From an uncultured Planctomycetales bacterium (lineage in GTDB: Bacteria > Omnitrophota > Gorgyraeia > Gygaellales > Profunditerraquicolaceae): a stretch of DNA of 64,000 bases. The translations under genes and the position numbers were made by a program. The stretch covers positions 46,197 through 110,196 of the forward strand of contig CAYHBB010000037.1 of NCBI GenBank assembly GCA_964354795.1. Reading direction: 5' to 3'. The notes under the pieces are model-generated. The model was given only the letters and a program-made list of their open reading frames with translations. It was not told where the DNA came from and did not search any database. Shown here piece after piece: positions 3,211 through 48,186 of this stretch. How positions within the stretch are numbered: the stretch's first letter is position 1; each line of letters begins with the position of its first letter.

Positions 3211-3238
3211 TAATCTTCCTTCGGCCTCTCGTCTCTAT

Positions 3239-5332
3239 TCACGGCATAATACGGCAACTTGCTAGCAATTCCTTACTGGAATAATTGCGGCCCCGTTGAA
3301 TTTTATCTTTGCCCCACCTTTGGGCATAACGTTGTGCCACCTGCTCCATAACATCTTCCGCGGACATTCCTGACCGTAACCCTTCTAAGAGCTCTTTAAG
3401 ATATTCGCTCAAGCGCTGTGCCGCCAATCCATCGCGAAAAGGATCTATGTCATTGATGATAGAAGACCAATTTCCTAAAGCAGGGTTCCCGCCAAGGGTT
3501 TTCCAGTGGTCCTGGCAGGCGTTCCAAAGGCTAAGATGATCTTTAAACACAACACCGGGGCCAAGTTTATACAATGGGCTTTCCGACCATCCTTCCAGGT
3601 CAAGGAATAAAGTCTTTGCGCCAGACAGAGCGGCATCAACCCCTGCCGTTCCCGCCCACAAACAATCGTGGATGGAAATATCCCCGGCTATTGCCGCCGC
3701 CGCCGGAGTAAACATCCCCTGAAAAAGTCCTTCATGAAAGACATAACACCTTCCCGTTCGCTGCGCAGCGCGCAAAAGATCTGCTACGGGCCCTAACCTC
3801 TTGAGCAAGTTCCAAGGTGTTTTAGGTTTAAAAATGATTCCGAGCTTGGGATCTTCAAGAAGTCGGTTTAACCAAAACGTATAGTTCTTACGCAATATTT
3901 TATGCCCCATAAACCAACGCCCATCATCAACGGAAATTTCATCAAAATACGCAATAATGCGCTCGGCTCCCCGCTCAAGAAGCCGACGCCTGATCTCTTG
4001 AGCCAAAGGACGTAAATGTTTAAATCTGTTATCGCCAATATAACCAACCGTAACGTGATATTTGAAATCTGAACCGCTTTTAAGATGGATATCCTGGCTT
4101 GGAGCAGAAAATCCAAAGATCAAATCGCTCCCTACAGCGTAATACGGAGAAGGGTTGGATTCATAGGCCCGCTGATACACGCTTGATATTCCGCCGACAT
4201 CGTTGATAGCATCCGCCATAGCCATATGAACGGCATCATATTTATACCAGGTAGTCCATAACTTAATATTATATCTACGAAAAAAATGGTTCCAATAATC
4301 TCGGGCTTGGCGGTATTCGAATATATAAGCGCGCCAGGCTTCCGGAAATTCATCGATGGAATATGAACGGAACTTATGACGGAATACTGGAACCTTAGAC
4401 TCATCGACTAGGCTAGACTGTACTGTCCGCGCAACAGCCGTGATGCCGCGGTCTGACATCTGGTGCCACTTCGTCTGATCAATAGGATCTACCCTATTAT
4501 TAAAAACAAGACAAACATCTGTTCCCTGGATACCCTGGGGATCAAGAAAAAAAAGGTCCGAAACACACTCGGGACGATCAATATTGAATTGCCCCAAATG
4601 TTCAACCATCATGCGTGCGGGACCAGAAACGTTCCAGGGAACATCGCATAGAGATTCTTTTTTGAAAAACAATCTTCCTGGGTAACGCAACAAACTAAGA
4701 ACCAAACGTAATTTGATTTTTGCGCAAAAAGACCAAATTTTCTTGAAAGCCAGTCCGCGCGCTCGATAAACTCCCATATTATGCGCAATAACACCGCATC
4801 CTTCAGCATAACGCACCAGGACTTTCCAAAAAGGCCTATTAAACATATATAGGTAAATCATGGCAGGGGCTGCTGTAGATTTCTTCCTGTGCCACTGCGC
4901 CATCCTGATCAAAACAAGCGCATGCCATAATTCTGAATGCATGGCATACCCATGGAAATCATAAGAAGAAACTGATGTTTTAGCTAAATACGCCGCCAAC
5001 CTTGCGTCCCCGTCACGACTCTTTAATTCCTCTTGGATTGGCACTTCTTTAAGGATCAATGCCTGCAGACTAACCAGATCATGGTAGCGAACCTGCAAAT
5101 AGACGCAAGCCCCCCGATCATCCCGGGCATCTGCCATCTGAAAGTTGATCCTCTCGACCTTAAAACCATATAGGCGACCAAATACTTGAGACAAAAAAAA
5201 CGCGCTTATTGTCGTATCAAAGACACCCAGGCGTCTTACTCCCGACGATTTTCTTAAGATAGGCAAAATATCTTTAATAAAATATGTAATCGTCAGAAAT
5301 TCAACATAAATAATGATAGGGGCGCTATCCAT
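3239..5332 (-). CDS. Large hypothetical protein (697 aa), Arg/Ala-rich and GC-richer than neighbours; possible glycosyl or nonulosonate transferase, function unassigned
   Basis: Long ORF with no in-frame stops in a coding-dense operon; no motif I can name with certainty. Confidence 0.5.
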   Translation of the reverse strand: MDSAPIIIYVEFLTITYFIKDILPILRKSSGVRRLGVFDTTISAFFLSQVFGRLYGFKVERINFQMADARDDRGACVYLQVRYHDLVSLQALILKEVPIQEELKSRDGDARLAAYLAKTSVSSYDFHGYAMHSELWHALVLIRMAQWHRKKSTAAPAMIYLYMFNRPFWKVLVRYAEGCGVIAHNMGVYRARGLAFKKIWSFCAKIKLRLVLSLLRYPGRLFFKKESLCDVPWNVSGPARMMVEHLGQFNIDRPECVSDLFFLDPQGIQGTDVCLVFNNRVDPIDQTKWHQMSDRGITAVARTVQSSLVDESKVPVFRHKFRSYSIDEFPEAWRAYIFEYRQARDYWNHFFRRYNIKLWTTWYKYDAVHMAMADAINDVGGISSVYQRAYESNPSPYYAVGSDLIFGFSAPSQDIHLKSGSDFKYHVTVGYIGDNRFKHLRPLAQEIRRRLLERGAERIIAYFDEISVDDGRWFMGHKILRKNYTFWLNRLLEDPKLGIIFKPKTPWNLLKRLGPVADLLRAAQRTGRCYVFHEGLFQGMFTPAAAAIAGDISIHDCLWAGTAGVDAALSGAKTLFLDLEGWSESPLYKLGPGVVFKDHLSLWNACQDHWKTLGGNPALGNWSSIINDIDPFRDGLAAQRLSEYLKELLEGLRSGMSAEDVMEQVAQRYAQRWGKDKIQRGRNYSSKELLASCRIMP

Positions 5333-5340
5333 ATATTATT

Positions 5341-6804
5341 TTAACGATTTTTTTTAACCCTCTCATGAATATCTCTAATGGCACTGCAAACCCGGTCAAC
5401 TTCATGTTCCTGCAAGTCTGCCGAACTAGGAAGACTTAATCCCTTCGATGCAAGCTCTTCTGAAACATCTAAATGCTGTCCTGTATTATAAATAGGTTGT
5501 GTGTGTACCGGAGGAAAGAATGGGCGTGTGTCTATATTCATTGAGATTAATTCACTGATCAGATCGTCTCTGTTTATCCCATATTCTTTTTCTACAAGGA
5601 CAGAATACAGCCAATAAACATTTTTGGCCCATTTCGCATGTGGCGGACAAACAATCCCCTCAATACCATCTAATTGTTTTTCATACCTATCTGCAATGCC
5701 TAATTTTGCCTGGATGATCGAGCCGATCTTTTCAACTTGCGCGAGTCCGATGGCGGCCTGGATATTCGTCAGCCTGCAATTATACCCAAGAACAGTGTGC
5801 CAATAACGTCTTGAAGGCAACATGCCATGATCGCGAAGCAACCTCACTCGTTCGGCAATATCGGGACTGTCAGTGACGATCATACCCCCCTCTCCGGTTG
5901 TGATAATTTTATTGCCGTAGAAACTAAACACGCCAATATCCCCAATGCTTCCAACTTTTTTACTCTTATATTCTGCGCCATGCGCTTCCGCGGCATCCTC
6001 GATGACGGCCAACTTATGAGCACGCGCGATTTCAAGGATAGGATCCATATCTGCGGGATGCCCATATAAGTGAACCGGTATAATAGCTTTTGTGTTCGGA
6101 GTGATCGCTTTTTCAATTAGATCCGGATCGATATTCCATGTCCTCGGCTCACTATCAACAAATACAGGTTTAGCCCCTGTATAACTAACCGCATTGGCCG
6201 TCGCGATAAATGTCAAGCTTGGCACTATGACTTCATCACCTTGATGGATACCCAAAGCTAATAAAGCTAAATGCAAAGCCGTGGTCCCATTACTTGTCGC
6301 CACAGCGTATCGCGAACCGCAATAATCAGCGAATAAAGCTTCGAATTTGCCAACATACTTTCCAGTTGAGGATATCCAATTAGAAACGATACAGTCAGTA
6401 ACGTACAATAATTCTTTTTCTCCTAATGAGGGCTCAGCAACGGGCAAGTGAAATCGCTGATCATAAAAAGCTATATCAACGATCTTATTTTCTAGATCAA
6501 GGACTGGAATAACGCGAACATCCTCTCCAAACATTTTAGCTATTTCTTCCGTTTTCATCCCTATGTTTGCGGTTTTAGTTGCCGGCCTTTCAACAAATTC
6601 TATTTTTGCCTCTAGGTTGTTTCCTTTTAATATTGCCCTTCGAATATCACCATCCGTTATAAGACCTAAAAAGCATTTCGTTTGAGCATCGATAATAAAT
6701 GCCGTACCCATTCCCCCTCTATTAATGACCCCCATTGTCTGCCTAATGGTATTATTAGGAGAAATGCACATTTCATCAATTTTCTTTCTATCAATTTTTT
6801 TCAT
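5341..6804 (-). CDS. CBS-pair domain fused to DegT/DnrJ/EryC1/StrS PLP-dependent sugar aminotransferase
   Basis: N-terminal CBS pair (GLITDGDIRRAIL...), C-terminal DegT-type fold (VATSNGTTALHLAL ... FSFYGNKIITTGEGGMIVTD). Confidence 0.8.
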   Translation of the reverse strand: MKKIDRKKIDEMCISPNNTIRQTMGVINRGGMGTAFIIDAQTKCFLGLITDGDIRRAILKGNNLEAKIEFVERPATKTANIGMKTEEIAKMFGEDVRVIPVLDLENKIVDIAFYDQRFHLPVAEPSLGEKELLYVTDCIVSNWISSTGKYVGKFEALFADYCGSRYAVATSNGTTALHLALLALGIHQGDEVIVPSLTFIATANAVSYTGAKPVFVDSEPRTWNIDPDLIEKAITPNTKAIIPVHLYGHPADMDPILEIARAHKLAVIEDAAEAHGAEYKSKKVGSIGDIGVFSFYGNKIITTGEGGMIVTDSPDIAERVRLLRDHGMLPSRRYWHTVLGYNCRLTNIQAAIGLAQVEKIGSIIQAKLGIADRYEKQLDGIEGIVCPPHAKWAKNVYWLYSVLVEKEYGINRDDLISELISMNIDTRPFFPPVHTQPIYNTGQHLDVSEELASKGLSLPSSADLQEHEVDRVCSAIRDIHERVKKNR

Positions 6805-7679
6805 CCGCTAGGCTCCAATTTATTAGGTTGACACAATAATCTGCTGATTATTGATTGCGATAATTTTAAATCAAAGATACCGCTGTATGTCTCGATTGTT
6901 AGCGTCCTATTGTTAAAATCAAATTTTTCTAAAATATTCAAAATATCGGTACTTTCACCAAAAGAACGATTTTGATCATGCGCGCCATTATTATCGCTTA
7001 GATGCACATAATCAGAGATCGGCATCGTTTTGTTTAATTGCTCTACAAAGTCAAGTCCTAAAGAATTTGCGCTTACCCTCAAATGCGCAACATCCAAAAG
7101 TAACTTAAAATCGATCAGGTTTCTTAATTCCAAATATCCGTTGTGATCGATAAGCATAAATGGACTCTGACCTTGAAACGTCTTAATATTGCTATATGAT
7201 AGGACATTGTTTTCTATATACAACTCGATATCGCTTGCCATCTCTTTAAGATGTTTGTATCCAGAGCAGAATCTCTTTATTGCCTTGTCTTTATCGCACA
7301 GCTTATTCAATGGGATATCCCTGCCTATGTCTCTTACATCAAAATCGATAAAAAACCCAGCGTGTAACCCAAATTTCTTCGAGCCTATTCTTTTTGAAAG
7401 TGAAATAGCCTTTTCATAAAACTCGACGGACTTTTTATATATCCCATCGTCTAAAGATGCTAAGTTTAATATAAAATCCTCCTTTGGTGGAGGGAAATAA
7501 TTATGCAGAAGATAATTTAAATTGTACTTATCTTTTAGCGCCAAAAGGTCTTCTTCATATCCCTGGTAATACTTTGTTCCGCCAGAAAGTTCAATATTCT
7601 TAAATCCATTGCGCGCAAGTTCATCAATAGATTCTTTTATTCTTTCATGTTTTACGCATGTCGATGAGACATATATCAT
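6801..7679 (-). CDS. Sugar phosphate isomerase/epimerase (xylose-isomerase-like TIM barrel) family protein
   Basis: Composition and length typical of AP-endonuclease-2 / xylose-isomerase-like TIM barrel; weak motif-level support only. Confidence 0.5.
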   Translation of the reverse strand: MIYVSSTCVKHERIKESIDELARNGFKNIELSGGTKYYQGYEEDLLALKDKYNLNYLLHNYFPPPKEDFILNLASLDDGIYKKSVEFYEKAISLSKRIGSKKFGLHAGFFIDFDVRDIGRDIPLNKLCDKDKAIKRFCSGYKHLKEMASDIELYIENNVLSYSNIKTFQGQSPFMLIDHNGYLELRNLIDFKLLLDVAHLRVSANSLGLDFVEQLNKTMPISDYVHLSDNNGAHDQNRSFGESTDILNILEKFDFNNRTLTIETYSGIFDLKLSQSIISRLLCQPNKLEPSG

Positions 7680-7696: not shown

Positions 7697-8794
7697 TTAT
7701 CTCTCTAAATACGACCAAAAAATGGGCTGATCCTTAGGTATGTCGTGGGTTAATTTCAACCCCAATACTTGATAAGACTCCCCAGCGCAAATCCCCCTTC
7801 CGCCCGTTCTTTTGGCAACAATATTTTCACGAGTTATTTTTTCGCCTTTTCTAAGATCCACTTTAGAAACCAGGCACTTTTGCAGCAATTTTTTTGTTTC
7901 TTTTTCGCTTTCCGCAGGGAATATCTCACTTCTCCCCAATATTTGTTCGACTTTTCGTATTTCCTTAACCCACAAAACAAGCTCAACCGGGGAAAGAGAC
8001 GCCTTATGATCCGGCCCCGGCAAATTTTTATCCAAGGTAAAATGTTTTTCTACAATTTTAGCGCCCAGCGCAACGGCATATGGAGAAACGCCTAATCCTT
8101 CGGTATGATCCGAGAACCCAATCACGGCATCCAAGCTATTTTTCATTGTTACCATAGCCATTAAATTAACCTCGCCGAAACCAGTTGGGTAATTTGAGGT
8201 GCACTTAAGAAGGGCTATTTCCTTACAGCCATTTTCTTTCAAGCATTGATATGCAAGCTCGATCTCTAAAAAAGAACTCATCCCCGTTGACAGGATAACC
8301 GGCTTTCCTTTTTTCGCGACTTTCTCAAGGAACAGCAAATTGGTTATATCCGTAGAGGCAATCTTGATAGCAGGAACGCCCAATTCAATAAGTAAATTTA
8401 AACTTTCTTCTTCATAAGGAGTTGAAAGAAAAATAATATTCCTTTCCGCGCAATATTTCATAAGAGCAACATGAAAGTCTTGATCAATTTCTAACCTTTT
8501 CAACATCTCCGTTTGAGATTCATCTGCGCCCGTTGTCCCCTTTTGATATAAGGCTTTCTCGATATCGTCTAAAATCAGATCTTCCGTCTTAAAGGTCTGG
8601 AATTTAACTGCATCGGCACCGGCTTTTGCTGCGAGATCAATTAATTTTTTTGCCAGATCAAGGCTACCATTATGATTTACCCCGGCTTCAGCAATAATAA
8701 AGCAAGGGTACCCATCGCCGATTATCTTATTTTTAATGTTTATTAAATTCTCCATTAAAAACCCCTCGTCTGAAAAACTTACCAAGCGGTCCAA
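7697..8794 (-). CDS. NeuB-family nonulosonic acid synthase (NeuB/LegI/PseI-like) with C-terminal SAF domain
   Basis: FIIAEAGVNHNGSLDLAKKLIDLAAKAGADAVKFQTF motif; SAF-like C-terminus (KGEKITRENIVAKR...). Confidence 0.85.
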   Translation of the reverse strand: MDRLVSFSDEGFLMENLINIKNKIIGDGYPCFIIAEAGVNHNGSLDLAKKLIDLAAKAGADAVKFQTFKTEDLILDDIEKALYQKGTTGADESQTEMLKRLEIDQDFHVALMKYCAERNIIFLSTPYEEESLNLLIELGVPAIKIASTDITNLLFLEKVAKKGKPVILSTGMSSFLEIELAYQCLKENGCKEIALLKCTSNYPTGFGEVNLMAMVTMKNSLDAVIGFSDHTEGLGVSPYAVALGAKIVEKHFTLDKNLPGPDHKASLSPVELVLWVKEIRKVEQILGRSEIFPAESEKETKKLLQKCLVSKVDLRKGEKITRENIVAKRTGGRGICAGESYQVLGLKLTHDIPKDQPIFWSYLER

Positions 8795-40462: not shown

Positions 40463-40534
40463 TTTCGTCCTTTTGTATAGATTTTTAGTTTATCACAGGC
40501 AGGGAGGATTGCAAATGTTTTTTTGAAGGAAAAT

Positions 40535-40581
40535 AAAGGGGACGGTTCTAATTTAACGAGAAATAAATAGAGCGTCCCCTT
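40535..40581. repeat. Copy 1 of shared hairpin motif AAAGGGGACGGTTCT ... AGAGCGTCCCCTT (imperfect), downstream of ORF6N gene and upstream of galT pair; terminator-like
   Basis: Seen directly; first ~28 nt identical to the copy at 41184. Confidence 0.5.
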
Positions 40582-40600
40582 ATACGCTTTTCCAGACAAT

Positions 40601-41122
40601 CTATCTTTTTACCCTGAATCCATCAACCACCCGCTTCGCCTCATCAGGAGTAATCCTCAGCTGACGAATCGCTTCAAATATATCGTGAATATTTTTATCA
40701 TGCTTTTCGACCTTATGCTCAAGCTGATTTAACTTAGCAGCAAGCTCCTTATGGGTAGACAAAATCTGACGTAGCCTTACGAACGCGCGCATAACAGCAA
40801 TATTAACCTGAATAGCGTTTTCACTATTAAGAACGGATGACAACATTGCTGTTCCTTGCTCCGTAAAAGCGTAAGGCAAGGTAGAAGAATGTTTCAAAGG
40901 ACTGAACCGGTCGCAAATTGCGACCAGTTCGATTTTCTCAGCCGGCGTAAGCTGAAACATAAAATCTTCCGGAAATCTCCTAATATTCCTTTTCACCTGC
41001 TCATTCAACCTTTTCGTCGGAACACGATAAAGCTCGGCTAAATCTCGATCGAGCATCACCTTCCTTCCCCTTAACACAAAGATGCGTGTAGCTACTGCTT
41101 CTGCTGGGACTAAATTTGACAT
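40601..41122 (-). CDS. ORF6N (KilA-N-related) domain DNA-binding protein, phage antirepressor-like
   Basis: N-terminal ~110 aa (RIFVLRGRKVMLDRDLAELY ... VMRAFVRLR) matches the ORF6N pattern; AAAGGAGG SD upstream. Confidence 0.7.
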   Translation of the reverse strand: MSNLVPAEAVATRIFVLRGRKVMLDRDLAELYRVPTKRLNEQVKRNIRRFPEDFMFQLTPAEKIELVAICDRFSPLKHSSTLPYAFTEQGTAMLSSVLNSENAIQVNIAVMRAFVRLRQILSTHKELAAKLNQLEHKVEKHDKNIHDIFEAIRQLRITPDEAKRVVDGFRVKR

Positions 41123-41187
41123 GGCTTCCTCCTTTTACTTTAATAGACGTAAAAGATGGCGAAATCTAACGAAAATATATGTAAAAT

Positions 41188-41236
41188 AAAGGGGACGGTT
41201 CTAATTTATGGTGAAATAAACAGAACCGTCCCCTTT
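41188..41236. terminator. Perfect 15-bp-stem hairpin AAAGGGGACGGTTCT-N19-AGAACCGTCCCCTTT flanked by T/A runs; bidirectional terminator-like. Copy 2 of the shared motif
   Basis: Seen directly in the sequence. Confidence 0.55.
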
Positions 41237-41261
41237 ACTTATTATTTTGCAGACCTCTATT

Positions 41262-41492
41262 TTATTTCACAAAATTCCCCTTCTTACTACTAACCGCCTT
41301 AGTAAAGATACATATAATTCGATAGACAACATACAATAAAACAAAGAAAATCAATATTAAATACAAAGGAATACCTAGCAATTCTACACCACCCATTAAA
41401 AGTGGATCATTATAAAAACATCTTGCTAATAGAAAAGCAAATAGAAAAAAAATCATTATAATTAACACCTCTCTAATTATACCTCTTCTCAT
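41262..41492 (-). CDS. Small 2-TM membrane protein (76 aa) immediately downstream of the Rhs toxin; candidate immunity protein
   Basis: Two hydrophobic helices; position 53 nt after the toxin stop; very AT-rich. Confidence 0.45.
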   Translation of the reverse strand: MRRGIIREVLIIMIFFLFAFLLARCFYNDPLLMGGVELLGIPLYLILIFFVLLYVVYRIICIFTKAVSSKKGNFVK

Positions 41493-41544
41493 ATTTAATC
41501 CCTTATATAATCCTGTAAATATAAAACCTGATCATATTGTCTAA

Positions 41545-42457
41545 TTAATGTGCATAATGATCAATACCTATAGGCGTAGTTCCTAAGTTTTCTGGCGCAT
41601 TCCCACCTGCCCCATAAATAACGGTATTTACCGCAAAATTACTATTGCAATTATAAAAACTATATGGCGTCCCTACCCACGCAGCTTTAAAAAGATTAAC
41701 AGAGTTATTATAGCCAGCCTGGCTTACCGAAACATTAGACTCTAGAGTAAGCTGAGGGTATTTACTAATATAAACTGATGTTCTCCCAAAAGAACCTTCG
41801 CCATTTAACTCAATAAGTTTTGAGTGAGCATCTGGTCCCATCTCAAAGTGATCAACCTCGCCCCTAATATATCTATGTCTAAATAAGCCAGGCTTATCAG
41901 GCGGACCTAAAGGCCGAGACCCAACTATCGCCGTAGTTTTATCAGCCCTATTTACGCTTAACGCATGAAGTCTCTTTATACCTGACTGATACGCTTGCTC
42001 CCTGCTCATTCCGTGTGCAAAATTCTGCATACCGCTTAAATAACTACCTTCAATTAATCCTCCTACCGCTGCCCCTATGCCAAAGCCTATACCACCAGCT
42101 TTCATCGCGTCACCAAAACTTTCACCAGAACCTAATGCTCCACCAAAGCTACCCCCAAAACCTCCTATGCCCATCTCAGTAGCGCCTACAAGAAAACCAC
42201 CCCCAAAGCTAAAAGCCTTCTTCCCCAGAAAACCAGCAACCTTATCCCCTAAAGCACCACCAGCCCAACCTCCCAAAATACCACCTGCTAACCCACCAGC
42301 AAATCCACCCCAATTCCCTGTCTTAACCGCTGACCCCAAGGAACTAAAGAAATTAAATATTTGGAAACCTACCATCATATTACCGCCACTAAGCACAGTA
42401 CCAACTATTCCCGCAACAACACCAACAATTGCTCCCCAGAACTTGCTAAACCAACTA
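41545..42457 (-). other. C-terminal ~302-aa region after the RHS-core DPSGH motif: glycine-zipper-rich segment (GGFAGGLAGGILGGWAGG...) plus ~160-aa unassigned putative toxin domain
   Basis: Position relative to the DPxGH autoproteolysis-type motif at 42458..42472; lower GC than the RHS body by eye. Confidence 0.5.
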
Positions 42458-45400
42458 TGCCCCGATGGATCCACATAATTTATCGGATTATTCCGACAAT
42501 AACTGTATCGATTAAGACTTTGCGGATCATAAGGCGCCTGGACGATAGTATCTGCAGTAACAAACCGTCCGAGTTGGGCGTCGTAGTAACGGGCGCCATA
42601 GAAGTACAGCCCGCAGGAATCGAGCTCTTTGCCGGTAAACTTATACTTAGGATCATGAGTACCAGACTGGCGATAAACCGAACCATATGGAGTAAACTCG
42701 GTAAAACCAACCTGCTTGCCGGTGGCATCCGTAACTACATTACTTGAGCCAAGATGGTCGGAGTGATAATAAAACTTATTACCCGTGGACTCGACTGCAC
42801 AAATACGGTTTGAGCCGCTAAAAATGTACTTGGTGGTCTTGCCGGAAGAATCTATCTCAAAGAGCGAACCAATATAAACGTTAGAACCTGAAGAGGTACT
42901 CTTCTTTACCCTCCCGCCATCCCCATCATAAACAAACGTAGTATTGGTAGATACACAGGAATTGCTGACCGCCCAGGTGACGCTACTTGCGCAATACAGA
43001 TAATACGCAACTCCAGGCTTAAGCGTAGTAAAATCTTTTTTCGACGAAGAGTATTCCTGATAAGCTCCGGAAGTTTTATTATAGTACAGAACCTTAGAAT
43101 AGTTAACGCCTAATTTAAGCGGTAAAAGCGCGCTCTCAACAGGCGTCTCATCTTTTTTGGGTGAGAAAATTAAGTTACACCCCGGACTTAAAGAAACCTT
43201 CTGGCTGATAGGCAAACTTCCGCTGACCGTCAAGCTCACTGAATCAGAGCTTATAATATAAATCTGATACCCTTTCCCAAAGTCAAAAGTGTTAAACTGG
43301 TCAAACTTGGAATTACCCACATAATTTTCATACTTCTTAGTTAACGGATTATACCGGGAAACCTGGTCATACTTTCCACTGATCCCGGACAAAACCGAAG
43401 CAATCTTGTTATCAACTAAACTTACCGGAAATGAAATAAAATTCCAGCCAGGATTTAGGCTTAAGGTAATAGCAGCGCTCTGTGCAACGGGAGTTGCGGA
43501 GACATTCTCTGACTTAGTTAACCGGTTTTCCGCATCATAAGTCAGCTGCACCGTACCCTTTTTAGTCATATTCCCGTTTGTGTCATACTCAATGCTAGTG
43601 CTACCATATCCAGTAACCGCGTGAGGAAGCAAACCATTCTTGCCGTAAGTCAAACTCACTCCCTCTTTACTCGTCATGTTCCCGATAGAATCATAGTTAT
43701 AGGTAAATGTGCCATAATTTCCCGCAGCAGTCACCAACCGATCCAGATCATCATAATTAAAAGACTGACTTGCGGTATTTACGTAATCGCTAAGATTCTT
43801 GATATTTCCCACGTTGTCAAACTGATAACTTAAATCCTGGATTTTTCCTAAAGGAGACACTGAATTAATATTGGAAAGCCTTAAGGTATTTGGATCATAC
43901 GCATAATTGGTCTCAACGCCATTACTATACTTGATTTTTGCAATCTGTCCCGTGACAGAATAATCAATATCGGTAATATAATTTGCTACACTTGATACGC
44001 CTTGCGGATTATACGTGTAGCTGACTATCTCTGCGTCAGGATATTTGAGGGTCAGCAACCTTCCCAACGCGTCATAAGTACGCTCAACTGAATAAGCGCC
44101 ATAGCCGTTAACGGTCTTCACTGACTTGGTCTCCCTGCCCAGATTATCATAATAAAATTCCGTCGAGCCTGACTGATCAGTGATCTTCGATAGCCGCCCC
44201 ACACAATAATTCTTCGCAACATCATCATAAACATAACTTGCCAACACCTGGCCATTAGACTGCTTACAAATCAACCGGGTAAGCGAATCATAACTAAAAG
44301 TCAAAACCTGGCCCTTGGCATCAGTCTGCTTAATAAGATTACCCATATTATCGTATTCATAATACCAAACCCCCATATCCGGATCATTCATCTTGATCTT
44401 ACGGTTCAAAGAGTCATACCAGATCTGGCTGACATTGCCCTGATTATCAGTAAGCTTGATTAAATTCCCCGCGGTATCATACTCGTAAATCGTAGTATAA
44501 GTTTGCGTACTATTGTGCTCCTCTATCTTTGTAATCCTGCCATAAGCATCATAATACTCGGTTTTATAGTGATTGTTTTCATCGGTCGCAGTTTTCTTAC
44601 CCAGTCCGTAACTTACCTTTGAAGAAGTCGAATCAGGATTCGTTGCCTGGACTAACCTACCCATAGCGTCATAACTATAGCTTGAATGCACAGTCTGAAA
44701 ACTTGGGGTGACATAATTCTCCGAAGAATTAACATAATATGAAAGATATTTTTCTTTGACCTGACCTTTAATATTATAAAGAACACTGCCTGATACAATT
44801 TGCTGGCTATCGTTTTCTGCCATGGATTTACTTTCAATCAAACGCCCCAGGCCGTCATAAAACGAATAAGCCGTATAATATTTAGGTGATGCGGAATAGT
44901 CTACTTTAACTTTCTGCGCAGTCTTTACCGGAAACACGCTTAGATTATACTCATAAAAAGAAGCGGGAGAGTTCTCGGAATCATTCGGCCCGACAACCTT
45001 AACCAACCTACCCATGGCGTCATAATAATTAGTCGAAATTAGCTTATTGGGGTCAATGGTACTTAAGGCCTGACCAGTGGCATAATTATAACTGGTAGTT
45101 ATAGCCTGGCCCAAAACATTAGAGCTCTTGACCGGATAGCTTTGCATCAAAGAATCGTATTCGGTGGTCATTGAGCGGCCCAGAGCATCTGTAGCGCGGA
45201 TAAGATTGCCATAAGAATCGTAGATGTAACTGCCGGAAATCCTACTCTCGATAAGCGTTAAAGGATTATAAAACCATACCTCCTCTTTTGTAAGCAAACC
45301 CTTGGAGGGAGATGTTTCAATTGAAACAGCATTATCGTAATAAAACCACTTTTTTGAAATAACATTGCCGGATTTATCTTTTGCATAAGCGTATTTTGGC

Positions 45401-48186
45401 GCCGACATAATCCAAGCCGGAATATTATAAACATACTCCGTAAGCGACTCCTGCTCATCACCGATTACGCTGATATCGCCGTATGAATAAACCCTTACGG
45501 GATTTCCGTAAGAATCATAATTATAAGTTACCCTGGTTTGCTTAAAATTGGCATTATTGTCGGGGTCAAAAATAAAGCTATCTGTCTGCGATTGATAAAC
45601 AAAGTTTACGCCCGGATAAATCTGAGATGACGCCCAAGTATTCTCTGTTTTTGCATACAGCTTAGCCGCAGCATCACGGATCTCCTGCTTATACATGCGG
45701 CCCTTAAGAATGCCATCCTGCTTAAAATAGTTCTCGATATAATTTCCTTCCACATCCGTAACTTTGACATAGCCAAAGCCGCGAAAATCCCGCTCAGCCG
45801 CATCGAAACATCCGTCTTTATAAGAATAGTTTGTGAAATACGCATTGCCCATTCCGTCACTTAACGCCACTTTTGAAACTACCTGTATAGCAAATGGGAG
45901 TTTTCCTGTAGTATTAGGATAGTAATTATTGTAGGCGGTAGACGGGGTATATTCGATTTGCGTTGAGCCGCCTATACCATTTGAAATATTGGTCAAAAGA
46001 TCAGCTGGCCCTGCCAGATTCAGATACGCTTTCTTGTAACCGTCTTTGGCGATACAAATATCAACCACTCCGTCGCCGTCTAAATCAGCCAGATACCTGC
46101 CTTGATCATAGCCTGAAGAATCCACAAAATCTCCGTCCGGAAGATTAAAAGAATCGTCCCTAACCCATCCTGTTCCCGTATTTATATAAACCGCATGATA
46201 TCCGGCACAAGCAATTACCAAGTCACTCAGGCCATCGCCGTTTATATCAACGATCATCCGACCTTGATCGCGTCCGGATGTGACAAATTCTCCGTCCGGC
46301 AGATTAAAAGCATCGTTCCTGGTCCAACCTGAGCCATTATTTAGATATGTGGCCTTGTAACCATCCGAAGCAATCAGAAAATCAGCTAAACCGTCGCCGT
46401 TAATATCAACCAGACGCCTTCCCCCGTCAGCCGGAACATCCACCCTTCCCACATAAGCCTGATTAGTGTAACCAAAAAAGCGAACATAATAACCATCGGG
46501 CGGATTCCAACGCGAATCCTGCTGCCAGCCGCTTCCGGTATTAATATAGGTATTTATCGTTGTGGGTATCACATCCAGGGGCCGGCTACTCCACTGCATC
46601 CTTTCGATAGCAATCGACAGGTCATTCAAACCATCACCGTTTAAATCCGCAAAACGCCTACCCCCGTCTATCTTATTGCCATAAATAAAATATCCGTCCG
46701 GAAGATTCCAACGCGTATCTTGCGCCCAGCGGGGGTTCTGCGGGTCCGGATATTGAAAAACATATACATTCTTATACTGACCGGTTGAACCTGTATAAGG
46801 ATCCCAGATTGATGCCGCAAGTAACTCAGGAATGCCATCGCCTGTCAAATCCACCAACCTTCTGCCATCATCCCAGCCCTGATAAATAAAATAACCCAAT
46901 GGCACCGGCCACCAATTTGCTGAAGCGCTAAATCCGTCTTTAGAATTTAGATGTGTCGCCCGCAGCCATTGCCTGGTCGATGACTCAGCAGGATCATAGC
47001 GTGAAATCACAAAATCAAACATCCCGTCGCCGTTTAAATCATAGACTCTCCTACCCTGATCTTGAGCCCCTTTTACAAAATCTCCGTCCGGGACATGCCA
47101 TTTAGCCTGATCAGCTGACCAACTTCCCTTATTTAAGCGATACGTAAAAGTAATCGGGTTAGACGCGGTAACGCCGTCTGAGCCATATTCAGTCACTTTT
47201 GACAGAAGGCTACGCTGCGAAGAAGCGCTCGCCGTATATTCAAAAGCATATCTACGCACCAAGCTGTTATCATATAGAACCTCTATTGTTTTCAAGCGCT
47301 TGGTCGTCTTTACTTGATCACCGATTAAATAGTTTAGGGAAATATCCTCCCGGCTTTCATAATTAAACATTGCCTTATACTTTGCCGCCAAACCCATTTG
47401 CTCATTGGCAGTGTAATTGATCGCGGCTGGATACAAGCAATTATCTTCCTTAATATAGGTAATGCTTAAAGAATTGCCTTTCAGATCGACTATTTTATCC
47501 AGTGCCCAGGAGAATGTGCCTTTAGAAATAGTCAGGCGGGAATTATCCGATGAACCAAAGAAAAGTTTTACCCCTGACTTATCTGTTACTTGCCAAGAAT
47601 TATTACTGTAGGTATATTTTACGAATGAACTCTCAATTTTTGCGCGGTATTCGTTATTTCCGATGCTGACTAAATCCTCTCCGCTGGCGGTAAAAATATC
47701 CGCGGAATCATATTTTGGCACACCACGCTTGGTCGAACGTGCAATCGAGCCCAGATCTAAAGACCACCCCACCCCGACAATACCATTGCCACTATTATTG
47801 TTGTAGGTAATACTTAAGGGTGGTGCGATATCTCTTTTGCCTTTAGGCGTAAATATGGGAATTGTAGCCTGGGCCTTGCCGGTAAAAGGATCCGGAGAAA
47901 CCGATTCCAGGATCCGGTTAAACTTATCGCTTGGGGTGTGAGTGTCTTTCTGAAAGAAGCTGCTGACAGTCGAAGACGGAAGCTCGCCTGCGGAAGCATA
48001 CGAAGAATCTGGGCGCTGAACCTTGCCGTGCCCGCGAATATCGGGGATTTTGCCAAGTGCTTCGTAATTGACCTTGGATTGGGGGCTCCTGGAAATACCC
48101 TTAGCAAAAGCAACATCCCGGAAACACACGGTGAATAAATGTATGAATACTAAAATTAAGGAAAGGACTTTGAAGAATATCTTCAT
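41545..48186 (-). CDS. Giant secreted polymorphic toxin (2213 aa): Sec signal + SpvB-like domain + FG-GAP/VCBS beta-propeller repeats + RHS/YD-repeat shell with RHS-core DPxGH motif + uncharacterised C-terminal toxin domain (Tc-toxin TcB-TcC fusion-like)
   Basis: Signal peptide MKIFFKVLSLILVFIHLFTVCF...AFA. SpvB-like GNGIVGVGWSLDLGSIARSTKRGVPKYDSADIF. Six DxNGDG repeats. Many YD repeats (YEYDTAGNLIKLTD, YYEYDNMGNLIKQTD, FSYDSLTRL ...). YYHSDHLGS. Core end NPINYVDPSGHS. Confidence 0.85.
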   Translation of the reverse strand: MKIFFKVLSLILVFIHLFTVCFRDVAFAKGISRSPQSKVNYEALGKIPDIRGHGKVQRPDSSYASAGELPSSTVSSFFQKDTHTPSDKFNRILESVSPDPFTGKAQATIPIFTPKGKRDIAPPLSITYNNNSGNGIVGVGWSLDLGSIARSTKRGVPKYDSADIFTASGEDLVSIGNNEYRAKIESSFVKYTYSNNSWQVTDKSGVKLFFGSSDNSRLTISKGTFSWALDKIVDLKGNSLSITYIKEDNCLYPAAINYTANEQMGLAAKYKAMFNYESREDISLNYLIGDQVKTTKRLKTIEVLYDNSLVRRYAFEYTASASSQRSLLSKVTEYGSDGVTASNPITFTYRLNKGSWSADQAKWHVPDGDFVKGAQDQGRRVYDLNGDGMFDFVISRYDPAESSTRQWLRATHLNSKDGFSASANWWPVPLGYFIYQGWDDGRRLVDLTGDGIPELLAASIWDPYTGSTGQYKNVYVFQYPDPQNPRWAQDTRWNLPDGYFIYGNKIDGGRRFADLNGDGLNDLSIAIERMQWSSRPLDVIPTTINTYINTGSGWQQDSRWNPPDGYYVRFFGYTNQAYVGRVDVPADGGRRLVDINGDGLADFLIASDGYKATYLNNGSGWTRNDAFNLPDGEFVTSGRDQGRMIVDINGDGLSDLVIACAGYHAVYINTGTGWVRDDSFNLPDGDFVDSSGYDQGRYLADLDGDGVVDICIAKDGYKKAYLNLAGPADLLTNISNGIGGSTQIEYTPSTAYNNYYPNTTGKLPFAIQVVSKVALSDGMGNAYFTNYSYKDGCFDAAERDFRGFGYVKVTDVEGNYIENYFKQDGILKGRMYKQEIRDAAAKLYAKTENTWASSQIYPGVNFVYQSQTDSFIFDPDNNANFKQTRVTYNYDSYGNPVRVYSYGDISVIGDEQESLTEYVYNIPAWIMSAPKYAYAKDKSGNVISKKWFYYDNAVSIETSPSKGLLTKEEVWFYNPLTLIESRISGSYIYDSYGNLIRATDALGRSMTTEYDSLMQSYPVKSSNVLGQAITTSYNYATGQALSTIDPNKLISTNYYDAMGRLVKVVGPNDSENSPASFYEYNLSVFPVKTAQKVKVDYSASPKYYTAYSFYDGLGRLIESKSMAENDSQQIVSGSVLYNIKGQVKEKYLSYYVNSSENYVTPSFQTVHSSYSYDAMGRLVQATNPDSTSSKVSYGLGKKTATDENNHYKTEYYDAYGRITKIEEHNSTQTYTTIYEYDTAGNLIKLTDNQGNVSQIWYDSLNRKIKMNDPDMGVWYYEYDNMGNLIKQTDAKGQVLTFSYDSLTRLICKQSNGQVLASYVYDDVAKNYCVGRLSKITDQSGSTEFYYDNLGRETKSVKTVNGYGAYSVERTYDALGRLLTLKYPDAEIVSYTYNPQGVSSVANYITDIDYSVTGQIAKIKYSNGVETNYAYDPNTLRLSNINSVSPLGKIQDLSYQFDNVGNIKNLSDYVNTASQSFNYDDLDRLVTAAGNYGTFTYNYDSIGNMTSKEGVSLTYGKNGLLPHAVTGYGSTSIEYDTNGNMTKKGTVQLTYDAENRLTKSENVSATPVAQSAAITLSLNPGWNFISFPVSLVDNKIASVLSGISGKYDQVSRYNPLTKKYENYVGNSKFDQFNTFDFGKGYQIYIISSDSVSLTVSGSLPISQKVSLSPGCNLIFSPKKDETPVESALLPLKLGVNYSKVLYYNKTSGAYQEYSSSKKDFTTLKPGVAYYLYCASSVTWAVSNSCVSTNTTFVYDGDGGRVKKSTSSGSNVYIGSLFEIDSSGKTTKYIFSGSNRICAVESTGNKFYYHSDHLGSSNVVTDATGKQVGFTEFTPYGSVYRQSGTHDPKYKFTGKELDSCGLYFYGARYYDAQLGRFVTADTIVQAPYDPQSLNRYSYCRNNPINYVDPSGHSWFSKFWGAIVGVVAGIVGTVLSGGNMMVGFQIFNFFSSLGSAVKTGNWGGFAGGLAGGILGGWAGGALGDKVAGFLGKKAFSFGGGFLVGATEMGIGGFGGSFGGALGSGESFGDAMKAGGIGFGIGAAVGGLIEGSYLSGMQNFAHGMSREQAYQSGIKRLHALSVNRADKTTAIVGSRPLGPPDKPGLFRHRYIRGEVDHFEMGPDAHSKLIELNGEGSFGRTSVYISKYPQLTLESNVSVSQAGYNNSVNLFKAAWVGTPYSFYNCNSNFAVNTVIYGAGGNAPENLGTTPIGIDHYAH

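Follow-up and report, generated by a model that had tools for sequence, protein, structure and literature searches.

We analyzed a 64,000-nucleotide stretch of contig CAYHBB010000037.1 (positions 46,197 to 110,196; hereafter the window) from an uncultured bacterium of the Omnitrophota, concentrating on the C-terminal tip of the RHS-type protein that it encodes. The rhs-type gene (41545–48186, minus strand) specifies 2213 residues, of which the tip comprises a glycine-zipper module and a tail domain. The predicted structure identifies the tail as a permuted papain-like domain of the NlpC/P60-LRAT-PPPDE type, with an invariant serine at the position of the catalytic cysteine. We propose that the tip is an exchangeable effector of a SpvB/TcdB/RHS cage protein and works as a membrane-anchored Ser/His acyl hydrolase acting from the periplasm, a reading to which we give about an even chance of being correct.

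Architecture of the RHS protein and exchange of its tip

The rhs gene is 6.6 kb long and was defined from its open reading frame (ORF) and translation together with Pfam and NCBIfam matches. Behind a signal-like N-terminal segment, the two databases identify SpvB (PF03534), FG-GAP repeats, TcdB_toxin_midN (PF12256) and many RHS/YD repeats (PF05593). The RHS repeat-associated core follows at residues 1831–1910 (42457–42696, minus strand; TIGR03696 over positions 1–76 of 76, E = 4e-21). It ends in NPINYVDPSGH, an instance of the PxxxxDPxG[LH] autocleavage-type motif, and the terminal DPSGH (residues 1906–1910, window positions 42471–42457) forms the border between conserved and variable sequence. 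Because DPSGH sits at this position, the span singled out in a preliminary description of this DNA, 41545–42457, is exactly the post-core tip: it begins directly after the RHS-associated core and consists of the post-cleavage sequence plus the stop codon.

Comparison with a metagenomic contig, L001, places a break in homology at this border. L001 carries an orthologous rhs gene encoding 2219 residues, and the two genes are 66–68% identical in DNA sequence from 47960 down to 42467, where homology ends inside the DPSGH codons. Beyond this point the L001 gene has a different tip, followed by a PD40-like secreted protein. The window’s own tip is found about 1.5 kb farther downstream in L001 as an orphan cassette, with 71% DNA identity (68% protein identity) to window positions 42096–41553. 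This orphan cassette (P0001) keeps the whole tail and only the last ~33 residues of the zipper, and is followed by its own gene for a four-transmembrane (four-TM) protein of 119 residues. Another contig, L007, shares 93% identity with the window from 44443 to 41180, a range that takes in the 76-residue ORF downstream of rhs. That the tip and its immunity gene behave as a mobile cassette, replacing other tips at the DPSGH junction, is well supported; the toxin/immunity displacement proposed in the preliminary description is borne out by homology to the L001 rhs gene stopping at DPSGH and by the same tip forming the L001 orphan cassette.

L006 (2–757 and 1162–2175), L017 (561–4061 and 5128–6489) and L021 (3–1838, 2267–3712 and 4807–6450) hold two or three cassettes of this toxin family in a row, and behind each of them lies a gene for a separate small secreted protein. 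These tandem arrays are classic orphan arrays, built of paralogues of one family.

Base composition had been described as visibly lower in GC across the tip and the downstream ORF. Raw GC content does not bear this out for the tip, which at 0.443 is not below the RHS body at 0.432; the zipper reaches 0.478 because of its GGN codons, and the tail has 0.41. The claim does stand for GC content at third codon positions (GC3): zipper and tail each have 0.31, and 150-codon windows of the body have 0.434 ± 0.031, with a minimum of 0.36. It also stands for the downstream 76-residue ORF, which is strongly AT-rich (GC 0.27, GC3 0.23); the stretch 41100–41544, within which this ORF lies, has a GC content of 0.29. 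The GC3 step at the tip junction agrees with the tip being of foreign origin.

The RHS shell itself contains an insert of ~188 residues just before the core (residues 1562–1749, window 42940–43503), made up of two look-alike units, LNPGWNFISFP...GKGYQIYI and LSPGCNLIFSP...GVAYYLYC. The insert is kept in the L001 ortholog; it has no Pfam match, and BLASTP did not detect its internal repeat. It may be a surface or receptor-binding element.

Conservation and predicted fold of the tail domain

The tail spans residues 2053–2213 (161 residues; 41548–42030, minus strand), in agreement with the ~160-residue domain that had been noted behind the zipper. As also noted then, it has no assignable family, with no hit in Pfam or NCBIfam even at E ≤ 1. 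A word-indexed protein search returned only two relatives, further searches of this type gave 7 and 1, and it took an exhaustive search of 1.84 billion cluster representatives to expose a family of 51 clusters at 50% identity, 24 of them at E ≤ 1e-10. The domain lies at the extreme C-terminus in every relative found, and each long member that was scanned proved to be an RHS or SpvB-TcdB-RHS protein. Thirteen of the 16 species-representative genomes encoding it are metagenome-assembled genomes (MAGs) of Candidatus Omnitrophota, two are labelled as of Planctomycetes type and one as Elusimicrobia. Omnitrophota are ultra-small bacteria for which predatory lifestyles have been proposed (bioRxiv 10.1101/2023.11.21.568195).

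We aligned 42 domain sequences with 26–96% identity to the window domain (alignment A1; domain residue number plus 2052 gives protein residue number). Seven residues are invariant in all 42: R39, H52, G65, Y123, N129, S130 and N131. D30, P66, T84 and Y139 are near-invariant, and position 63 is Glu in 36 of 42. One outlier, the non-RHS homologue P0048, has N-D-N, with Asp in place of the Ser of N-S-N. The ratio of nonsynonymous to synonymous substitution rates (dN/dS) is 0.11, indicating that the tail is under purifying selection.

AlphaFold2 (AF2), run on the alignment of 42, yielded a confident tail model with a predicted local distance difference test score (pLDDT) of 87.7 and a predicted TM-score (pTM) of 0.84. 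Its elements follow in the order helix, four strands, helix, strand, helix, helix, with H52 in the second strand and S130 as the first residue of the last helix. The structural-neighbour list for this model, which gives one figure per neighbour, contains PPPDE/DeSI (2wp7, 7.2), the type VI secretion (T6SS) effector TseH (6v98, 7.0), PLAAT4 (5.8), CLN5 (5.8), Aichivirus 2A (5.4), YiiX (5.1), MARTX RID (5.0) and the cysteine peptidase 3kw0 (4.1). Weak matches to Pfam PF05903 (Peptidase_C97/PPPDE) occur in 3 of the 42 members (best E = 0.0034); the window domain itself has none at E ≤ 1 and does not reach the gathering score. In hhalign, N-S-N is placed on the N-C-N of human DeSI that contains catalytic Cys108. 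Two spacings are identical between the proteins: His to Gly at +13 (H38/G51 in DeSI, verified against 3ebq, and H52/G65 here) and Tyr to nucleophile at 7 (Y101/C108 and Y123/S130). Since the structural neighbours and the DeSI motif spacings are those of the permuted papain-like superfamily, which already includes TseH and Tox-Act1, the earlier suggestion of a possible new toxin fold does not hold.

As in PPPDE proteins, the predicted permuted papain fold has a His ahead of the nucleophile helix. It has no catalytic Cys in an N-C-N-x-F box; the family has N-S-N-[YF]-A, with Ser in 42 of 42. From this conservation we propose Ser2182 as the nucleophile, within the invariant Asn2181-Ser2182-Asn2183 at the N-terminus of the last helix (41638–41646, minus strand; alignment, AF2 and hhalign). 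The proposed catalytic base is the invariant His2104 (H52; codon 41875–41877, minus strand) in strand β2, as placed by alignment and AF2, and the alignment locates Glu2115 (E63; codon 41842–41844, minus strand) between it and the invariant Gly2117.

Two other readings of these motifs were rejected. An LRAT-like H...NCEHF enzyme would use the Cys of NCNSNF, that is Cys2180, yet this column is H, Y, C or R across the family and the Ser two residues on is invariant. For an ADP-ribosyltransferase (ART)-type R-S-E reading of RHR...SxS, alignment A1 shows no conserved Glu after SxS. A distant Cys-type sister tip does exist: the resident L001 tip (hhalign probability 93.6%, E = 2e-7) has N-C-I-G-F near S130, with a Cys whose position relative to S130 is ambiguous in MAFFT; P0054 has N-C-I-G-F there as well.

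The glycine-zipper module

Between the core and the tail lies the glycine-zipper module (residues 1911–2052; 42031–42456, minus strand), recognized from GxxxG statistics and AF2. The preliminary description had correctly placed a GxxxG zipper after DPSGH; its length is 142 residues, not the ~130 given there. The module is 31.7% Gly and contains 22 GxxxG motifs, where composition-preserving shuffles average 13.5 (P about 0.001). The density per 100 residues is 15.5, against 0.26 in the RHS body. The first ~30 residues are strongly hydrophobic. AF2 of the whole tip predicts five zipper helices at low pLDDT (34–64), so that their packing is not readable.

A Gly-rich GxxxG spacer lies between DPxG and the tail domain in about 30 of the 34 family members with enough sequence; for the 15 of them whose DPxG motif could be located, its length is 124–158 residues. 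A similar zipper also precedes the different-looking sister tail in L001. Because the spacer recurs across the family and accompanies this sister tail, the zipper is no low-complexity accident but a constant partner module.

Opposite the zipper coding sequence run two ORFs of 133 and 128 residues (42077–42478 and 42361–42747, plus strand); most likely they are artefacts that arise because the coding strand is rich in GGN.

Downstream genes and candidate immunity proteins

An ORF of 76 residues with two or three predicted TM helices (41262–41492, minus strand) starts 52 nt past the rhs stop codon and is conserved downstream of the window, L007 and L008 toxins. The last two are the closest toxins, and the homologs directly downstream of them share 87% (L007) and 59% (L008) identity with the window protein. 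A central segment, FLLARxFYNDPLLMGGVELxGIPLY, is nearly invariant while the flanks drift. Position and conservation make this ORF a likely immunity protein.

Across the family, the small co-oriented downstream gene co-varies with the toxin, its place being taken in other subclades by different secreted or membrane proteins; the 76-residue protein and the 119-residue membrane protein of L001, for example, have no detectable homology. We found such a gene in 20 of 21 distinct loci, the contig of the 21st (L004) ending before any downstream gene. The types are the TM hairpin of 73–76 residues, the 119-residue four-TM protein (L001), a secreted or lipoprotein domain of ~100 residues (13 loci), PD40-like propellers with signal peptides (L006, L022) and a lipoprotein (L010). 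Because all 20 candidates carry a signal peptide, lipobox or TM helices, their predicted features suggest that toxins of this family act at the membrane or in the periplasm rather than in the cytoplasm.

The proteins of ~105–135 residues that follow 13 of the toxins (L005 at 4874–5233, L009, L011, L012, L014–L021 and L023; alignment A6) are putative secreted proteins or lipoproteins that share the motif DG[VI]xKEEAIIIAQN...W.V.F...V.[VI][DN]KKTG.[IV]. They have no significant Pfam or PDB match and look like an unannotated immunity family. A PepSY identity for these ~125-residue secreted candidates was unsupported: one of 13 matched PepSY at E = 0.13 and one matched Tli4_N at E = 0.015, with no PDB relative.

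PD40/Tricorn-like propellers with signal peptides are encoded in L001 (8551–9609), L006 (2171–3205) and L022 (623–1591), adjoining Ser-type members in L006 and L022 and the Cys-type sister tip in L001. Since the L001 propeller is homologous to the L006 one, which follows toxin P0043 (E = 1e-31), Cys-type and Ser-type tips seem to share one type of immunity. At L013, the immunity position (6513–7007) holds a signal-peptide protein homologous to the toxin domain (E = 8e-19) that ends before the N-S-N helix. This protein and P0048 may be inactive toxin-derived decoys, immunity proteins or remnants.

Proposed mechanism and alternative explanations

The architecture, family, fold class, invariant residues, cassette exchange and neighbouring gene types are established, and we infer cleavage, membrane insertion, catalysis, substrate and immunity as follows. 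The RHS core would cut at ...DPSG|H, as its canonical motif suggests, and free a two-module tip of ~300 residues. The five-helix zipper would then insert into the target’s cytoplasmic membrane, or anchor the effector on it, from the periplasmic side. His2104 and Ser2182, both observed in the sequence, would form the catalytic centre, probably with Glu2115. By analogy with characterized relatives, the enzyme would cleave or transfer acyl esters of membrane phospholipids or lipoproteins and so harm the envelope; a peptide or isopeptide in the cell wall would be the second-choice substrate. The 76-residue protein, presumably co-transcribed, would shield the producer, its invariant inter-TM segment touching the toxin at the membrane surface; the FYNDPLLMGGVEL segment would be expected to meet the active-site face of the tail. 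Tip and immunity gene together swap at the DPSGH junction as a mobile cassette, as the comparison with L001 shows.

Several observations weigh against an acyl hydrolase of this kind. The tail lacks any curated-family match at the threshold given above, and searches of PDB sequences with it (phmmer, hmmsearch) returned only a spurious ECF transporter and an S-layer protein. The remote-homology comparison of a predicted structure, suggested in the preliminary description, recovered the fold superfamily, but the top Foldseek match, again TseH, falls short of significance (E = 0.06, TMq 0.43). With a single DeSI sequence, hhalign aligned the C-terminal motif alone (E = 0.021), and a forced global hhalign of tail and DeSI gave nothing. 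Papain-like families with Ser for Cys exist, none with proven activity (PMC10318531), and for this reason the tail could conceivably be a non-catalytic binding module. The dN/dS of the 76-residue ORF against its closest homologue is 0.76, a value based on 15 changes only, and the substrate is assigned entirely by analogy.

The same fold and location would also suit an enzyme whose substrate is a cell-wall peptide or isopeptide, such as a peptidoglycan amidase or endopeptidase or a hydrolase of the lipoprotein–peptidoglycan link. We regard this as unlikely, given that the characterized permuted NlpC/P60 members act on fatty-acyl linkages, that TseH has phospholipase activity and Tox-Act1-intoxicated cells retain their sacculus (PMC12994826), and that the window’s immunity candidate is embedded in the membrane, with the toxin too having a membrane module. 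Alternatively, the zipper itself could be a pore-forming or depolarizing toxin and the Ser-variant tail a catalytically dead scaffold or targeting module. The dense GxxxG helices, the loss of the catalytic Cys and the resemblance of the small polytopic immunity candidates (window, L007, L008 and L001) to ExiCD, which is paired with EsxX (PMC12744356), favor such a toxin. It is harder to reconcile with seven polar or aromatic tail residues that are invariant in 42 sequences at identities down to 26%, or with the low dN/dS of the tail. Moreover, the orphan cassette P0001 has retained the entire tail and the immunity gene and little of the zipper, a like zipper in L001 precedes a different tail with a different immunity gene, and most immunity candidates of the family are soluble secreted proteins, not membrane proteins. 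On balance we find a zipper toxin improbable.

A role for the zipper as a translocator that carries the enzyme across the target’s inner membrane to a cytoplasmic substrate has precedents in Tde1, where a GxxxG-dependent translocation module is fused to an enzymatic toxin (PMC10240207), and in the usual fusion of Rhs repeats to cytoplasm-acting effectors noted in the Salmonella T6SS study (PMC12994826). Yet none of the ~20 downstream candidates is plain cytosolic and the closest characterized relatives are harmless in the cytoplasm, which makes cytoplasmic action quite improbable. Finally, the combination of SpvB, TcdB_midN, FG-GAP and RHS is that of TcB-TcC, and the structural neighbours include PPPDE and RID, so the protein might be the BC subunit of an anti-eukaryotic toxin of the Tc type whose cargo is deSUMOylase/deubiquitinase-like or Rho-acylating (RID-like). 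Against this stand the dedicated immunity-type genes downstream, the tandem orphan cassette arrays, the concentration of the family in Omnitrophota MAGs, and the ten genes scanned on the two flanks of rhs, which are housekeeping or small secreted genes and include no TcA-like gene; we give an anti-eukaryotic role very little credence.

The periplasmic Ser/His acyl hydrolase remains our preferred reading. A bolder form of it, which we put forward as doubtful, is that the family constitutes an undescribed class of RHS envelope toxins, characteristic of Omnitrophota, in which a multi-helix zipper plants a Ser-nucleophile permuted NlpC/P60 acyl-hydrolase/transferase in the inner membrane of the prey and a tiny two-TM protein blocks it by way of its conserved inter-TM segment; it would be the first functional Ser/His permuted papain.

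Other features of the locus

A strong hairpin followed by UUUAUUUU, a U-rich tail, lies at 41183–41240 on the minus strand, identified as an inverted repeat with a folding free energy (ΔG) of −33.4 kcal/mol and z = −8.8. It is probably the terminator of the rhs-immunity operon; its long loop kept it from being called in a simple terminator scan. The same ~56-nt palindrome, AAAGGGGACGGTTCT...AGAACCGTCCCCTTT (ΔG −33 kcal/mol), occurs in the window at 41183–41240 and 40530–40585, and these copies flank an ORF6N gene (40601–41122) on both sides. L007 has the palindrome at ~3212–3262, 4334–4388, 4960–5014, 7107–7216 and 7741–7767, with extra genes between the copies, namely a BrnT toxin and a second ORF6N. 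The palindrome may be a terminator-type repetitive extragenic palindromic (REP) element that marks where genes insert in a variable island downstream of rhs.

Directly upstream of rhs is a gene for a secreted protein of 177 residues (48189–48722, minus strand), recognized by its signal peptide and by phmmer homology (E = 1e-58) to part of a protein of >645 residues encoded upstream of the L001 rhs ortholog. It has no Pfam match and may be a conserved accessory partner of rhs. A second small signal-peptide protein upstream (48815–49255, 146 residues) consists of low-complexity repeats rich in Ser, Gly, Asp and Phe. The ten neighbouring genes scanned comprise fmt, priA, glycosyltransferases, GalT, GAPDH and two small proteins of no assigned function.

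Comparison with known toxin systems

The closest known systems appear to be Tox-Act1 and TseH. The Salmonella toxin Tox-Act1, a permuted NlpC/P60 protein, exerts its toxicity in the periplasm alone; it cleaves acyl chains from phosphatidylglycerol and phosphatidylethanolamine, and its immunity protein Imm-Act1 has two TM helices (PMC12994826). Its homologues, too, occur as RHS C-terminal tips; its two-TM immunity protein resembles the candidate described here, and the periplasmic action and lipid acyl ester target that we propose for the window tip would be like those of Tox-Act1. The differences are considerable. Tox-Act1 uses His43 and Cys151, whereas our tail family has an invariant Ser at the Cys position. 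Relatives of Tox-Act1 match Pfam DUF4105, while the tail has no such match and its best weak signal is PPPDE. Tox-Act1 belongs to a T6SS (SPI-6), there is no T6SS context at the window rhs gene, and the tail family adds a Gly-zipper, of 142 residues in the window. Of the GenBank contigs that carry the tail family, the six searched for do not appear in the accessible part of the published tables of permuted NlpC/P60 homologues.

TseH (Vibrio cholerae VCA0285, PDB 6V98; immunity protein TsiH) shows phospholipase activity on liposomes (PMC12994826); it is toxic only in the periplasm, and HHpred relates it to Peptidase_C97 (PMC4453574). It is a stand-alone Cys/His T6SS effector of 223 residues without a zipper, and the similarity found between it and the tail is structural, with 10–12% identity in the structural alignment. 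The PPPDE/DeSI proteins (PF05903; PDB 2WP7, 3EBQ) are eukaryotic or viral cytosolic isopeptidases with a catalytic Cys. They share 14% identity with the tail, whose family differs by an additional helix at the N-terminus and by an inserted β-α unit. LRAT/PLAAT (H-RAS-like suppressor) phospholipase-acyltransferases are not toxins; they have an NCEHF box with Cys and a His as their third residue, and are anchored by a single C-terminal TM helix, in contrast to the N-terminal five-helix zipper predicted here.

Glycine zippers can permeabilize membranes, and Tde1 delivery requires one (PMC10240207); EsxX is a case in which the toxin consists of the zipper itself (PMC12744356). Like the window tip, zipper toxins (the Tde1 N-terminus, EsxX, CdzC/D, Tse4/Ssp6 and the ionophores of contact-dependent inhibition (CDI) systems) have GxxxG runs in hydrophobic helices of antibacterial effectors, in some cases with membrane-protein immunity. 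The Tde1 motif is short, however, and in the others the zipper is the whole toxin, whereas the window tip partners a zipper of 142 residues with an enzyme-like domain in an RHS cage. Among the serine papain-like families (DUF2145, DUF2272, DUF3750, menin and APC5867; PMC10318531), a conserved Ser replaces Cys and the His is retained, as in our family. None of them matches the tail domain, and none is reported in that survey as a polymorphic-toxin tip. With the Tc toxin BC component (TcB-TcC), the window protein has in common SpvB, TcdB mid/N, a β-propeller, an RHS cage and a C-terminal cargo.

If the domain is active, the permuted papain scaffold (NlpC/P60-LRAT-PPPDE) can run on a Ser/His pair, an activity that the papain-superfamily survey leaves open (PMC10318531). 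The family would then be a third, sequence-unrecognizable branch of lipid-targeting NlpC/P60 toxins beside Tox-Act1 and TseH. It also supplies Omnitrophota with a first concrete candidate for an effector of cell-cell antagonism. Its zipper pairing offers a tractable case for how RHS cargo reaches a membrane substrate, and the unrelated immunity solutions to one toxin fold (two-TM, four-TM, secreted proteins of ~100 residues and PD40-like) are a useful natural experiment. Set beside these systems, the type of toxin system and the fold superfamily are known, and what is new is an unannotated family with a changed nucleophile and a fixed zipper partner.

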